A DNA stretch of 64,000 nucleotides. Origin: Truepera sp. (GTDB lineage: Bacteria; Deinococcota; Deinococci; Deinococcales; Trueperaceae). The position numbers were made by a program. Where the stretch lies: the NCBI GenBank assembly GCA_965218435.1, contig CBDCKW010000009.1, forward strand, positions 2,336,001 to 2,400,000. Direction: 5' to 3'. This document shows, in pieces, positions 38,401 through 44,400 of the stretch (the stretch's first letter is position 1; every line of letters starts with the position of its first letter).

Positions 38401-41400
38401 GCCACCTAACGCCACGCCGATTTTTGGGGGAGCTGAGACCGTCATGTTCAGCTAGTATAGCCCCCGTTCCTTATAATCGCCTGTGTAGTACTCGGCTTCT
38501 GCCGTAAAGTACCTAACCCTTTATGACTGACGACACCCTGACCCTCCTCGTCATGCACTACCGTACCCCGGACGTGCTAAGGGCGTGCCTAGAAAAACTC
38601 GCTGCTTTTGCCCCTAACGCACGCGTGATCGTGCTCGACAGCAGTCCGCCGGACGAAACGCCCTGCACTGCGACCGAGCTCTTAAAAGTTCCCAATCACA
38701 GTTTCGCTTACATGGTCAACTACGGCCTCAAACTTGTAACGACACCCTACGCCGCACATCTGAACGCGGACGTATTTACCGAGCCGGAGACGTTGCCGCA
38801 ACTTTTAGCGGCGGTGCAGCAACCGGGCGTCGGGATGGTCGGGCCGACGGTTAGAACCCCGGACGGTAAGCTGCAAAACCAAGGATTTCCTTACCGCCGA
38901 CATTACCGGAGGCTAAACCGCAGCACCCAAGCTGTCTCGGTGCCGTGGCTTTCAGGCTGTTTGCAACTCGTGCGTATGGAGGCTGTTGCCGCTGTGGGCG
39001 GGATGGACGCCTCGCTGCGGTTCTACAACGAAGACATGGAGTGGTGTTTCCGGTTTCAGCGCACAGGCTGGGCGTGTCATTTGGTCAAGACCGAAGTCTT
39101 ACACCTTGGCGGCAGCTCTACGCCCAAAGACCTGCGGTTTACCCTCGAGGGCTACCGGGGCGGGTACAAACTCTCGCAGCGGTATCACGGCGCGGTTTAT
39201 CAGGGTTTACACCGGGGCGTGGTGAGGGCGCAGAGTGCTTGGGACAAGCGGTTTAGCCGTGACCCGGTGCAGCAGCAAGCAGCAGCGCAAATCAGTGAGA
39301 TGTTTCGGTCAGGTGAGTTCGATGAAAGTCCGTTCGGAGAAATACTGACGGATAGTAACCCTCGGTTTTTAACGAGCCCGATAAGATAAACAAAGTCTCT
39401 CCCACTACATAAACATAGAAGAGACACGGACAATTTAGCAATTTATAGACCTATAGGGAAGCTCAAGGTTATTGAAATGAAATGCTAACCGAATCACCCG
39501 AATCAGTATTGGGAGCTAATTCTCTTTCGGGCTCGTAGTATACAAAAGGGTAAAGGACTACATTATCAGCTTCATCCAGCGTAAAGGAAAAAGAATGCTC
39601 AAATGTTCGTTTTTCCCCACGTCTTAACACTATATCGGGGAACTTCTCAAAGTAGGTTGAGCCGTTCAGTAAGCGGTACTTAGCAGACAAGGCGTTATTG
39701 ATAGGCTTGCAAAAGCCTTCTGGGTTAATAAAACTTCTATCCGCACCCATACCCTCGGTGAAACACGCTCCGATGCTGACTGAGAGAGGTACCTCCGCAA
39801 ATGTGCTTCTTGCGTCTACCTCGAGCGTTGCTCCTAGGGTAACAACTACCTCGTCACCAATTTTGGCCTGTTTAGGTTGCGACGTTATAGTTACGGGATT
39901 AACATCAATTCGGTCGTTAATCGCAGCTAACTCGTTAGTACAGGCACTGAGCAGCGGCACAAACGCCAAGAGCAGTGGTAATAATTTCGCTTTCATAGCA
40001 GTAGCCTTTCTAAAGCTAGATTTTATTAAGCTAGGTTGTCATAAAGCTCTACCGTCTGGCAAACGATTCCTTAACGCAGCGGCACACTAAAGCCAAACTC
40101 ATTGCCAGCCTCGAGCGGCCTGCCCCACGCTTCCCCGCCCCAACGGTTGGCTATCGAGCGGACGATGTAGAGCCCTAGCCCCGTCCCCTTGACCTTGACG
40201 CCGCGCCCCCTCGAGTGCGGTTCAAAAAGCCCTTCAATGGTCTTTTCCGGGAGCGGCTGCCCTTCATCCCGGACTGAGACGCGGACCCACGCGCCCTGCA
40301 TGTCAGCGCGTAAAAAGATCGTTTTGTCGTCGGGACCGTGAACGGCGGCGTTCTCGAGCAGGTTGATTAAAACTTGCAAAAGTTTGTCCGCGTCGGCTAA
40401 GACAGTAAAGGGCGGGACGTCGCACTCGAGCTTCACTTTATGCTCTAAAAAGGTGTCGTGCAAAAGTGCGAGTGCCCGTGAGACAACCTCACGGAGCGCC
40501 AACGAGCGGAGTTTGGGTGGCCGCACGTCTACCGTCAGGTCGTTTAAGAGCCGGACCAACCGCTCGGTTTCGGCTTCAGCGCGACCTAAAAAGCGTTCGC
40601 GCTGCGTTTCCTCGAGCGGATAACGCAGCGCCTCCAAGGTTGAGCGAATGGTCGTCGTGGGCGTTCTAAGCTCGTGCGACAACACCGCCAAAAGTTCGCG
40701 GGCACTCTCCTGGGCGCGGCGCGTCTCGCTCAGGTCATGAAGAATCAAGCACTCGGGTGTGGCCGAAGCGCGTAAGATGCGGCCTCGAGTCTCTATTTCG
40801 CTACTCTGACCGGTTAAAAAGACGGCCTCGAGCCGGTGGTCACGCAAGACGCTGATCAGCGGCGCACCCCTTACGCCTTCGGGTTCTACTTCTAAAAACC
40901 GCCCCGCTGCCGCGTTGAGCCGCACCACCCGGTCGCCCTGTACAATGAGGATACCTTCAGCTAACTCGTCAAAGTAAGGCGGGACGGACACCTTACTCCG
41001 GCCCTTTGAGGCGGTAACCCCGGCCCCGTACGGTTTCAATCAGGTCGGCTGATAGCAGTGCCCGGAGCTGCGCGACGTGCTGGTCAACGGTGCGCTCAGT
41101 CCCCAAAAAGTCTTCACCCCATACCCGGTCTAAAAGTTCGGTACGCGAAAACACGCGCCCCGGCGACGCACATAAAAAAGCCAACAGCTCAAACTCGCGC
41201 CGCGTTAGGGTCAAAGGACGGCCCTTATAGCTGGCACTTCCCTGACGTTCGTCTAACGTAAGTGCTCCCACCTTATGCACGCGGGCGGGCTCGGTGCGCC
41301 GCAAAAGTGCCCGGAGCCGCGCCACGAGTTCGGCTACCGAAAACGGTTTGACGAGGTAATCGTCCGCACCTGAGTTGAGACCCTGCACCTTGTCGGTCTC

Positions 41401-44400
41401 ACTGGCGCGGGCAGTGAGCATCAACACGGGTTGGCCTTCACCCTTCGTGGTTTGCCGCAAACGTTGCAACCAGTCCACGCCGGAGCCGTCCGGGAGCATC
41501 CAGTCGAGCACCACGGCGTCGGCTTCAGAGACGTGCTTCCAAGCCTCCTCGAGCGTTTCGGCCTCAGTGACCCGAAAGCCTGCCTGCGTCAGGTGAAACG
41601 AGAGCAGTTCACGCACCGCCAGTTCGTCTTCAATGACTAGGATGTGTGCGCTCACGACATCTGCACTTCGGTAAGACTCGCCACGATACGCCGGTACTTC
41701 ACAAGCTGATTCTAGCTACCTGTTTGTCAGAGTGCCGTCAGCTGGGTCTATACTCGGTGCATGTCTTTGGGTCGCAATCTAAGTAGCGAGCCGCTTCCCG
41801 GTTACCTAGAGGTTATCGGCCTCGAGTTGTGGCGGTTAGCAGATGCTCGTGACCGCACCCTCAACGCTGTTGGGAATTGACGCAAGCTCAGCTCGAGACC
41901 TAAACACCCAGCGGCAACACCATCAGCACGCTGTACCATCTCGCCGCCACCGAAACCGATTGGTTCTGCGCCGAATTACAAGAGGATTTTTCGGAAGATA
42001 TTTCGGCGTATTTCCAGCCGATGTCCGGGATGAAGACACCTCAGCTGGGTTACGGGAGAGAGCCTCGAGACCCATTTGGCACGGCTCGAGTTCGTCCGAG
42101 CACAGTTGCCGGAACGCTTTACGGGCATAGACGAAACCGAATACCGGCGGCTCGGGCACCTGCGGATTACGACGTTTCACCGCAGTAGGTGGTGCATCAC
42201 CTCGCGCAGCACGAAGCCCTGCACCGGGGGCAGCTTTTAGCTGCCCTTAACGCTGACAGCTGACGCTCTCCTGACAGCCTCCTCTCATAGTTGAGAAATG
42301 TTACGCTCTGAGCCTATGACTGCGCTTGACCACAACTTGCAAGAGATCACCGCGTCGGTGGTGCGGATGCTTTCTCTCGTCCGCGAATCGGTCGGCCTCG
42401 CCAAACGCGCCCTGATCGACGCCGAACCGGGAGCCGCCGAGCTGTGCGCCGAAAATGACCTCAAGATAGACGCGCTCGAGGCTGACATTGACCAGACTAT
42501 CCTGACCGTGATCGCCCGCCGCCAACCTGCCGCGTCGGACTTACGCCAGTTAGGGGCGCTGCACCGCACCTTAGCCGAAATCGAACGCGCCGGGGACAAC
42601 GCCCGCCACGTCGCCCGCGTCGGCGCAGAACTCGCTGAAAAACCACCGATCAAAAAATATGTGGACACCGAACGCATCTTTGAAATCCTCAACGTGATGA
42701 TTGAAACGACTATTCGGGCGATTGCTGAGGGAGACGTTAAAGCGGCTCAGCTCGCCCTCAGCATGGACGACGAGATTGACGACTTGTACGAGCAGATTCA
42801 GCGCGAGTTACTCACCTATATGATGGAGAATCCCAAGATCATCTCGCAGGCGACCAAACTTCTCAGCATGGCGCGGTACTTAGAACGCGTCGGCGACCAC
42901 TTTGAAAACGTCAATGAACACGCGATTTACTGGCTGACCGGCGAGCGGGTTATCAAGGTGGGCTGAGCCCCCATAAAATTCACCCGTAAGACTTTTACGG
43001 GGGCGTAAAACCCTTGTGCAGAACTCGGCCACCGTAAACATGAGCGTGCTAGGCTGTTCGGGTGAGAGTTGGGCGAAAGACCGAACGCTTTAGCGACTTC
43101 GGCGAACGGCCTTACTACTTGGAGGCGCTGCGCTTCGCGGCGCTACAGTTTTCTTTATTTTCGCTATGTCTAGTCCTGAGCTTCTCGAGCACCCTGCTGC
43201 TAGCTCAGATTGACGTTGCCGGACAAGCTCGAGCAGCCCTGAGAAACGGGAGTCGCCAAGTTTTGCTGCTGGCGCTTGGGCCGCCCCGCGTCGGCATTCA
43301 GATCGGGCATGACGGCGCTGCCGAGCAGCCCAGTGAACTCGCACATTTGCGCTTTAATACCGGTGGGTTTGCGGGCGGACTCAGTGAACTTGCGGTTAAC
43401 CGCAGCGTGGCTAAAGCGTTAAAGGGGGTGTTGGAGGCCGAGGGCGTTACCGTTGACCTGCTCCGGGCAACGCCGCCGGTAAGTTATCACGCCGACCTGC
43501 TCTTGGCCGTTCACGCCGACAGCGTGTCAGACCCTGCACGAACCGGCTACAAATCGGCCTATTTCGACCCACCCCGGAGCGGGCTCGAGCCTGAACTTAA
43601 AGCCCTGGTAGATGCCAACTATCTGCAGGCAACCGGCCTCCCGGATGACGCTGCAAACACCACTGACGCGATGCGCCACTACTACGCCTTTAATTTTCGG
43701 GGCTACCACCACACCGTTCACCCGGCGACGCCCGCACTGATTGTCGAACTCGGGTATCTGAGTAACCCGGTAGACGCCACCTTGTTACGTGAACCGGACG
43801 TTTTGGCGGACGCGCTTGCAGAGGGCGTTATAAACTTTTTGGAACAGCGGAATCGGTTGCCCTAAACCGAGTTATCTAATTTTGCAGCTAGGTTCGCAGC
43901 AAGTCTCGAGCGGCGCGCACAAGGTCGGCGTTGTCAGCGGCAAGCCGTCCATCCGGCAGAACCGGCGTATCTTCTAAACCGGTTCGAATCCCGTGACCAC
44001 GAGATAGCGCCCGCTTACAAACTGCCTAACTAGCGATGAGGTCGCCGTGATGAACCTGCTCAAGCAAAATGTTAGCCCCGATAAGCACGTTTTCTATCGC
44101 GGCAGCGTGCGCGGTGGCCTCATCCGGGTCGGCCTCGAGCGGTTCGATGAGTACACGTACACACTGTTTAGAGAGACCCGAGCGCACGAACGCCTCTGCA
44201 TCTCCTACACTGAGCAACCCAGCTTCAATCCCGGCACCCCGCCGGAGGAGGAGATCGCACAGTTCCAGAATGCCTTCCTCTCCCTGATTAGCCGTTACCA
44301 AATCCGGTAGTTCTGTCCAAGCCTCTACGAGTGCAAAACGGCGCGACGGGTCAGGCTCGAGACCGGCCGAGGTTGTAAACGAGACAGGCACGCCAGGGCA

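Follow-up and report, generated by a model that had tools for sequence, protein, structure and literature searches.

A direct-repeat Pho box as the predicted PhoB binding site of Deinococcota, and its occurrence before a four-gene TelA operon

The window analysed here, a stretch of 64,000 nucleotides from one contig of Truepera sp. (Deinococcota), carries a divergent locus in which a phoB-phoR pair on one strand faces phoU on the other. The genes, which were matched to those of a preliminary description by position and family, and the elements lying between them are as follows.

40071..41039, minus strand: phoR-like histidine kinase, an ORF from the first possible start, the true start being probably slightly downstream (TIGR02966, 109 bits against a cut-off of 334)
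40993..41655, minus strand: phoB response regulator (best family TIGR02154 PhoB, 237 bits against a cut-off of 296; recognition helix RTVDQHVAQLR)
41652..41702, minus strand: 16-codon upstream ORF, starting 6 nt past the -10, with its stop overlapping the phoB start by 4 nt
41709..41714, minus strand: putative phoB -10 element (TAGAAT), 10 nt past the box
41725..41741, minus strand: Pho box CTGACG-GCACT-CTGACA before phoB-phoR (exact match, matrix score 21.9 bits)
42260..42276, plus strand: Pho box CTGACG-CTCTC-CTGACA before phoU (exact match, matrix score 23.1 bits; kept in 20/30 loci of family f1)
42286..42291, plus strand: putative weak -10 CATAGT of phoU, 9 nt past the box
42298..42966, plus strand: phoU (TIGR02135, 174 bits, above the cut-off of 130), with a second in-frame ATG at 42316
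42299..42307, plus strand: extended -10-like TGTTACGCT, 8 nt ahead of the second ATG

PhoB and PhoR both score under their family cut-offs, but synteny with phoU and the pst genes supports their assignment, and the kinase was assigned by its synteny with phoB and phoU. The two exact boxes bear out the earlier claim that the repeat precedes both phoB-phoR and phoU. The upstream ORF before phoB would be leaderless and coupled to phoB, and phoU would likewise be leaderless, its first ATG lying 6 nt past the -10, while TGTTACGCT is a possible basal promoter for phoU. The fixed spacing of 39-42 nt before phoU that had been described was measured to the second ATG; in 21 of the 22 boxed f1 loci, an in-frame ATG is found 20-24 nt past the box. 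Rfam gave no match within 39000-44000.

Comparison with relatives refined the box to HTGACV-N5-HTGACV, that is, two direct repeats with an 11-bp period that replace the -35 and are followed, 8-10 nt downstream, by a weak -10 and an often leaderless start. In 103 sites, and with the -10 elements predicted from sequence, the spacer from box to -10 was 9 nt in 68, 10 nt in 23, 8 nt in 11 and 11 nt in a single one, so that 102 fall within 8-10 nt; at the phoB sites, the start codon lies 4-9 nt past the -10 in 45 of 47. Within this genome, CTKACR pairs with a -10 at 9-11 nt number seven at spacer 5, against none or one at each of 15 other spacers. The bare motif, in contrast, is not enriched in the window (24 matches versus 17.0 +/- 3.9 expected by chance) or in the genome (six exact matches at spacer 5 versus 2-11 across spacers 0-15); the support for the motif is positional and comparative. 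When the half-site was widened to CTKACR, 31 pairs were counted at spacer 5 versus 5-23 at the others, but these were mainly CTTACA repeats lacking a -10 at 9-11 nt and were not counted as Pho sites. Such related CTTACA-N5-CTTACA repeats are found in unrelated intergenic regions of the genome.

A position weight matrix was trained on the loci of the relatives, leaving this genome out, with the reversed genome as control. Five sites exceeded 19 bits (those of the arsR operon, phoU, phoB, the ugpB-like gene and a second ugp-like operon) versus none in the reversed genome. At 13 bits or more there were 46 sites versus 13 in the control, which indicates that many weak matches arise by chance. The strict-consensus and matrix counts are partly circular, since it was the training loci that defined both the consensus and the -10 columns of the matrix. 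The full arrangement occurs before only 17 of the 3673 genes of this genome.

Conservation was counted allowing two mismatches at most within about 160 nt of the gene, in relatives from five families (f1 to f5) that are not independent of each other. The box was present at 34/36 pstS loci (105/1800 in shuffled sequences), 48/61 phoB loci (89/3050) and 28/70 phoU loci (100/3500). The figure previously given for pstS, 15 of 16, is thus upheld on the larger set, and the shuffle rate, put at 1.5-2%, is slightly higher here, at about 3-6%. The count of 14 of 22 for phoU became 28/70, but a box of its own is seen only in f1 (20/30) and f2 (8/12) and in none of the 28 loci of f3-f5, where phoU sits inside an operon. 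Two boxes had been described at pstSCAB of this genome. One, at C9:3832515, is exact, whereas the pair upstream of it has a 7-nt spacer, and a search for a second in-phase box there found none. The pstS promoters of f2 contain four half-sites, and most other promoters two. At D. deserti pstS, for which a start site and its -10, CACTCT, have been published, four half-sites span -61 to -23 relative to that start and end 9 nt ahead of that -10; the pstS records of D. radiodurans and T. thermophilus agree with it in both the box and the 9-nt spacer. In genus g12, two genomes without a detected PhoB orthologue likewise have no box before phoU or the second ugp-like operon. Genomes G031 and G041 retain phoB with an unchanged helix, yet the box is absent at phoB and phoU.

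Elsewhere in the Truepera genome, one-mismatch boxes were found where they had been reported before the ugpB-like gene and the C5 alkaline phosphatase gene. Boxes accompany 13/30 ugpB-like loci, 11/22 second ugp-like loci and 3/6 alkaline phosphatase loci, versus the 17/3673 genes of this genome. The label "ugpB-like" is used because the UgpB scores (PRK10974) are 228 and 84 bits, under the cut-off of 411. The box reported before the C5 phosphoesterase gene also exists, with one mismatch, but it scores only 8.5 bits and a single one of 15 loci passes the threshold; this gene is only possibly part of the regulon. The second ugp-like ABC operon is a new regulon candidate, and the arsR-arsC-aquaporin operon, with the best-scoring box of this genome, is probably a new member.

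The occurrence of the box before phoB, pstS, phoU, ugpB-like and alkaline phosphatase genes across five families, together with its position, spacing and polarity, makes us confident in predicting that HTGACV-N5-HTGACV is the binding site of Deinococcota PhoB and that it would mediate phosphate-controlled activation, which supports the PhoB-operator interpretation proposed earlier. Upon phosphate shortage, PhoR would phosphorylate PhoB, and two PhoB DNA-binding domains would sit head-to-tail on the 11-bp repeat at the -35 position, recruiting RNA polymerase to the weak -10 located 8-10 nt downstream; many of the resulting transcripts would be leaderless. The predicted regulon comprises phoB-phoR (autoregulation), phoU, pstSCAB, the ugpB-like and second ugp-like ABC operons, the alkaline phosphatase gene and an operon encoding a solute-binding protein (SBP), TelA, an SBP/vWA protein and an XpaC-like protein, probably the arsR-arsC-aquaporin operon and possibly the phosphoesterase gene.

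It could be argued that the half-sites are ordinary -35 hexamers and the repeat incidental, given that CTGACA is one change away from TTGACA and that TTGACA itself is seen as a half-site. However, the half-sites end 9 and 20 nt ahead of the -10 and not 16-18, no sigma-70-type promoter was called at either window site, the start sites of D. deserti, as far as the available part of the published work goes, have no widely conserved -35, and the arrangement is restricted to the 17 genes mentioned above, all of which makes this reading very improbable. Somewhat less remote, but still improbable, is that the repeat is the operator of another OmpR-family regulator or that PhoB mainly represses there. 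The genome has 15 further OmpR-family genes, CTTACA-N5-CTTACA repeats lie in unrelated intergenic regions, G031 and G041 carry phoB without the box, and at some promoters a third half-site overlaps the -10. Against this, the targets are canonical Pho genes and phoB is the only one of the 16 OmpR-family genes preceded by a box; as to repression, a weak -10 with the box upstream fits activation, and the third half-site can also be read as the TG of an extended -10 followed by CA.

The PhoB interpretation can be set beside the boxes known from other lineages, taken here from the available portions of the published sources. The Deinococcota box appears close to that of Firmicute PhoP, which is TT(A/T/C)ACA repeated four times in B. 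subtilis and (T/A)T(T/G)ACA in Lacticaseibacillus (PMC11870197). Both have an 11-bp period and a sense-strand half-site ending in ACA, both consensuses include TTGACA and ATGACA, and four in-phase repeats occur there as at D. deserti pstS. They differ in that Deinococcota favour C as the first base and G as the third, accept A, G or C as the last, and manage with two half-sites at most promoters. With the E. coli PhoB box, CTGTCAT (PMC4415409), the likeness extends to a direct repeat of 11-bp period in the -35 region, the core targets and autoregulation, but position 4 is A in Deinococcota and T there. Nor are the helices alike: DVHIRRLR in E. coli is DQHVAQLR here, DQH-x-x-Q recurs in 54 of 55 PhoB loci, and the site is not of the E. 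coli type, the consensus being HTGACV and Gln standing for Val197 and Arg201, the two residues with which E. coli PhoB contacts bases. These V197Q and R201Q changes would explain the changed half-site. The Deinococcota hexamer also ends 9 nt ahead of the -10, against 11 nt in the E. coli promoters. On the other strand the box reads TGTCA, and the reverse orientation scores higher in 74 of the 103 sites, so that the sequence allows either polarity relative to E. coli. Streptomyces PhoP (GTTCACC) and cyanobacterial SphR (CTTAACCT; PMC1906773) likewise have a lineage-specific half-site on an 11-bp period, although the half-sites differ, and the Deinococcota box adds a further lineage-specific form to this familiar signal. 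It offers a usable PhoB site model for the whole phylum, including D. radiodurans and T. thermophilus, whose phosphate regulons become predictable and testable with few promoter mutants.

The operon on C5, in the order SBP, telA, SBP-vWA lipoprotein and XpaC-like gene, follows the alkaline phosphatase and phosphoesterase genes, a neighbourhood that genome G222, from the same genus, does not share. TelA (PF05816) scores 297 bits, above the Pfam cut-off; the last gene has no Pfam match at 1e-5, and its Atlas look-alikes are named XpaC-like (0.95) or belong to the PF10112 (Halogen_Hydrol) cluster (0.81). The box reported before this operon is exact (C5:352870), and the Pho link, which previously rested on one genome, now extends to three phyla: boxes were found at 15/24 Deinococcota loci (5/2400 in shuffles), E. 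coli-type boxes at 13/19 proteobacterial loci and Streptomyces-type boxes at 9/15 actinomycete loci, leaving 9, 6 and 4 operons, respectively, without one. None of the 24 Deinococcota promoters of the operon contains GTTCA repeats. None of 13 telA genes located outside such an operon, with no binding-protein gene, is boxed, which indicates that phosphate control tracks the binding proteins and not TelA. We consider it highly likely from these patterns that the four-gene operon is under Pho control. A literature search, thin on subscription journals, found no paper on a Deinococcus/Thermus Pho box or on TelA under phosphate starvation; the terms TelA and vWA are absent from the main text and four supplements of the S. 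coelicolor PhoP ChIP paper (PMC3479208) and from the main text of PMC1906773.

What the operon does can be read in two ways. It may well, at slightly below even chances in our estimation, be a module at the cell surface for capturing or sensing phosphorylated solutes when phosphate is short. Two membrane-anchored binding proteins would hold the ligand, TelA and the XpaC-like membrane protein would relay ligand or signal, and the module itself would have neither ATPase nor permease. Both binding proteins, which are not alike by BLAST and have no solved-structure relative by sequence, adopt the class II fold; the best fold match, level with a thiamin-binding protein, is a sulfate-binding protein (Z 22.7, rmsd 3.7, 275 aligned), and the sugar-phosphate binder AfuA is also a best match (E 2e-13). 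The product of the last gene is similar (score 0.95) to proteins whose name refers to 5-bromo-4-chloroindolyl phosphate hydrolysis, and the operon adjoins the two phosphatase-type genes here. However, identities are 12-18%, iron, thiamin and polyamine binders score equally, the name XpaC was assigned automatically, and G222 does not have this neighbourhood. Alternatively, and more tentatively, the operon might protect the envelope, or against toxic oxyanions, being switched on with the Pho response as high-affinity uptake admits arsenate-like ions and membranes are remodelled. TelA belongs to a toxic anion resistance family, and the best box of this genome precedes arsR-arsC-aquaporin. B. subtilis also pairs an XpaC-like membrane protein with a TelA-family protein, YaaN. 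There, xpaC-yaaN is a core operon of the sigma-W envelope-stress response (available part of PMC3498285), while here two solute-binding proteins, one of them vWA-fused, and a preceding Pho box are added. Pho and arsenic control are linked in other systems, as far as the consulted parts of published work tell, but telA without a binding-protein gene was never boxed (0/13). The operon has a different Pho box in each of three phyla, every time the local type, which makes TelA/XpaC function testable under one defined condition. The widest version of the solute-capture reading, which we put forward as a conjecture, is that the Pho regulon has in this operon an arm that spans phyla and had gone unrecognised, a transporter-free surface module that captures or senses phosphorylated solutes, rewired to the Pho box of each lineage; for the first time, the TelA/XpaC family would then have a physiological trigger and a class of ligands.

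Several other matches in the genome were set aside. The window site at 38527-38543 lies inside a glycosyltransferase ORF and has a poor -10, and that at C9:485100 falls within an ORF. The exact box at C9:1204791 is treated as an orphan: it lies in a partial copy (82-84% identical) of the C5 region in which the phosphoesterase gene is truncated. Instead of the 18 one-mismatch hits given in the preliminary description, we found 134 sites with one mismatch at most, or 62 for the pattern of its title, the earlier count having probably been filtered by position. Four of the one-mismatch hits, described earlier as intron copies, indeed fall in copies of 2.4 kb (99.8% identity) encoding a 568-residue YADD reverse transcriptase.

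The phoR-phoB-phoU locus of the window comprises the following features:

40071-41039, minus strand: phoR, below the NCBIfam cut-off
40993-41655, minus strand: phoB, best family PhoB, at 237 bits versus a cut-off of 296
41725-41741, minus strand: exact CTGACR-N5-CTGACR site, directed at phoB
42260-42276, plus strand: exact CTGACR-N5-CTGACR site, directed at phoU
42298-42966, plus strand: phoU, divergent from phoB-phoR, passing the NCBIfam cut-off

The boxes that the preliminary description had placed before phoB and phoU were thus recovered as exact matches. The bare motif was not enriched, either in the window (24 matches with up to two mismatches versus 17.0 +/- 3.9) or in the 4.8-Mb genome (six exact matches versus 2-11 at other spacers). 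These six sites are those of phoB, phoU, pstS and the C5 operon containing telA, one within an ORF and one in a partial C9 copy of the C5 region. That copy (L003:4664-5813; C9:1204664-1205813) spans the phosphoesterase, here truncated, and the downstream box, is 82-84% identical, and leaves its orphan box some 480 nt upstream of a sugar ABC operon. Sites with up to one mismatch number 134 in the genome; four of the one-mismatch matches fall, as had been noted, in copies of one element, 2.4 kb long (C4:38-2464, C5:297908-300334, C5:561099-563526 and C9:775347-777764; 99.8% identical) encoding a 568-aa YADD reverse transcriptase, whose copies appear to be group II intron-like and recently spread.

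Conservation was assessed in five families of the order (f1-f5) with the original pattern (two mismatches at most, on the sense strand, in some 160 nt upstream; this genome included). The phoU and pstS loci were drawn from 121 genomes, as the best 30 matches per search plus 40 hand-picked f2-f5 phoU regions, and matches starting beyond query residue 35 or with less than 200 nt upstream were excluded. The box preceded phoB in 48 of 61 loci (shuffles 89/3050), pstS in 34 of 36 (105/1800) and phoU in 28 of 70 (100/3500). The conservation claimed from a smaller set was therefore maintained for pstS but only in part for phoU, which had no box of its own in any of the 28 loci from f3-f5, where it sits inside an operon. 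The pstS set contains no f4 loci; a named T. thermophilus plasmid record carries the pstS box. Antisense matches were confined to f1, in which phoB and phoU diverge from a common gap. In f5 (loci L080-L082), a second, divergent OmpR-family gene with its own box lies beside phoB, adjoining pstS and phoU. Instead of the two boxes described at pstS of this genome, there is a single in-phase box; the pair farther upstream has a 7-nt spacer. In the znuA-pstS gap (L002:4464-4505; C9:3832463-3832504), CTGACA-N7-CTGACA is followed by an inverted GGTCAA-N7-GGTCAG, a symmetric arrangement with a 13-bp period.

Other genomes contributed 164 upstream regions, whose 103 sites yielded the consensus HTGACV-N5-HTGACV and a -10 starting with T or C, although matrix training prescribed TGAC as well as the A and the T of the -10, so that those columns carry no evidence. 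The -10 follows the box at 9 nt (68 sites), 10 nt (23), 8 nt (11) or 11 nt (1), and in 45 of 47 phoB sites the start codon lies 4-9 nt past it. The D. deserti pstS start site is, within the part of the published map considered (PMC4007540), an independent check of this anatomy: it is the A of the ATG, with -10 CACTCT, and the gene record carries four half-sites in 11-bp phase from -61 to -23, the last one 9 nt before that -10. The same portion of the map places the start of a regulator gene two upstream of phoU likewise at -1, with -10 CAGAAT. In D. radiodurans, the pstS box lies 9 nt before CACACT. A leaderless start of phoU (42298-42318, plus strand) may exist in two places: the first follows the -10 linked to the box, the second an extended -10, TGTTACGCT, which sits within the first six phoU codons; the second start is retained in box-less relatives. 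Of the 22 boxed f1 loci, 21 already have an in-frame ATG 20-24 nt past the box, and the 39-42 nt spacing reported before phoU had thus been counted to the second start. A 16-codon ORF (41652-41702, minus strand) begins 6 nt past the -10 of phoB, and its stop codon overlaps the start of that gene. In 8 of 22 f1 loci, a similar ORF of 10-21 codons ends over the estimated start of phoB; such ORFs may encode leaderless leader peptides that are coupled to phoB.

In the mechanism that we infer, phosphorylated PhoB would bind head-to-tail to the repeat, in the position of a -35, and activate a weak -10, a reading that we hold with high confidence. Among the 16 OmpR-family genes of this genome, only phoB has the box. 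The recognition helix reads RTVDQH(V/I)xQ(L/I)R in 54 of 55 PhoB loci, in contrast to RTVDVHIRRLR in E. coli, where Val197 and Arg201 touch bases according to the section consulted of PMC3973317. Both positions are Gln in this PhoB, which would account for A instead of T at half-site position 4. Read in reverse, the box gives TGTCA, and a proteobacterial matrix favours that reading in 74 of 103 sites, so that either polarity relative to E. coli is possible. In G081 and G088, this query found no PhoB orthologue (best 43-44%), and the box is absent at phoU and at the second ugp-like operon. However, G031 and G041 possess phoB, and the box is absent at both phoB and phoU. Repeats of the form CTTACA-N5-CTTACR that lie between genes and lack a -10 at 9-11 nt (C9:143858, 149823, 1748034, 2850282, 3802938 and others) are perhaps sites of another OmpR-family regulator.

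A matrix trained without this genome scored 46 sites above 13 bits here versus 13 in the reversed genome (5 versus 0 above 19 bits); with 13 bits as threshold, 17 of the 3673 ORFs carry a site within 250 nt. Homologue counts, which include this genome, were 13 of 30 for the ugpB-like gene (with the loose pattern 26 of 30, against a background of 170/3673). Of the three C5 units previously assigned to the regulon, the TelA operon and alkaline phosphatase were retained; for the latter, 3 of 6 loci pass, and in all six a pair resembling the box stands 9 nt ahead of a -10. The phosphoesterase is only a possible member (1 of 15, its own site here scoring 8.5 bits). Two further units, absent from the preliminary description, emerged: a second ugp-like ABC operon (C9:2573413; 11 of 22 loci) and arsR-arsC-aquaporin (C9:2311010; L143:4011-5510), which has the top-scoring box of the genome and 7 of 30 homologues passing. 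The ars box is less certain because it overlaps an inverted repeat, likely the ArsR operator; links between Pho and arsenic control exist elsewhere (PMC7533571, in the portion considered). An inverted pair of boxes, placed back to back (L001:13917-13958; C5:357916-357957), serves alkaline phosphatase and a divergent gene whose 130-aa exported product belongs to no known family.

The main interest lies in the link between Pho control and the TelA operon, which spans three phyla. On C5, this operon consists of:

gene 1: 364 aa, N-terminal helix, predicted class II solute-binding fold (pLDDT 91)
gene 2: telA
gene 3: SBP_bac_11-vWA protein with a lipoprotein-type signal
gene 4: 206-aa XpaC-like protein

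Gene 1 was detected in 24 of 301 genomes of the phylum, and the tie first claimed from one genome extends to 15 of these 24 loci, with a site above 13 bits within 250 nt (f1 2/5, f2 12/15, f5 1/4; shuffles 5/2400), and to host-type boxes in other phyla. Among telA loci without gene 1, none of 13 has a site in 1200 nt (three more, with short flanks, were left out). Pho control of the operon is thus considered quite likely. As to its role, the capture or sensing of phosphorylated solutes is put forward tentatively. The top fold match of gene 3, followed closely by iron binders, is AfuA, which binds sugar phosphates, and the predicted fold of gene 1 matches a sulfate-binding protein (Z 22.7), level with thiamin-binding protein. 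Envelope or oxyanion protection, supported by the sigma-W control of the B. subtilis operon xpaC-yaaN (PMC3498285, in the part covered), is a more doubtful possibility and was ranked behind phosphorylated solutes.

The operon also occurs outside Deinococcota.

Loci of the TelA operon with each core (up to one mismatch, sense strand; actinomycete set, best 15 of 29)
Deinococcota core: Deinococcota 20/24; proteobacterial 1/19; actinomycete 0/15
TGT(C/A)A core: Deinococcota 6/24; proteobacterial 11/19; actinomycete 0/15
GTTCA core: Deinococcota 0/24; proteobacterial 0/19; actinomycete 9/15

The proteobacterial loci were also scored with a matrix derived from two E. coli promoters and from the pstS promoters of these same genomes. 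At p <= 0.05, 13 of the 19 have a box on the sense strand; five of the 13 are Iodobacter-type promoters that are nearly identical, so that, by our reading, about seven independent groups remain. The actinomycete set comprised the strongest 15 of 29 loci, the 14 weaker matches being left out. There, GTTCA-N6-GTTCA occurs in 9 loci with up to one mismatch (shuffles 4/900) and in 11 with up to two (72/900); telA is included in these 11 and in no others, and an identical site is common to five loci. Similar repeats are used by other actinomycete regulators, which weakens this arm when taken alone. The GTTCA core is of Streptomyces type, as described in the section seen of PMC4415409. The boxes nearest to that of Deinococcota are those of Firmicutes, TT(A/T/C)ACA and (T/A)T(T/G)ACA (PMC11870197, in the part available), and the box appears to be a lineage variant of a known Pho signal. 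Our literature search, with RegPrecise and most subscription journals outside its scope and a prior prediction thus possible, found no published description of a Deinococcota box; nor, again with most subscription journals outside its scope, did it find a published account of TelA under phosphate starvation. Ten TelA loci of other groups were inspected only visually and with two patterns, and do not enter the counts; in Desulfobulbaceae and Chloroflexota (L276, L275, L300, L294), other 11-bp repeats are seen by eye upstream of the operon, AACA-type and, in one case, Deinococcota-like.
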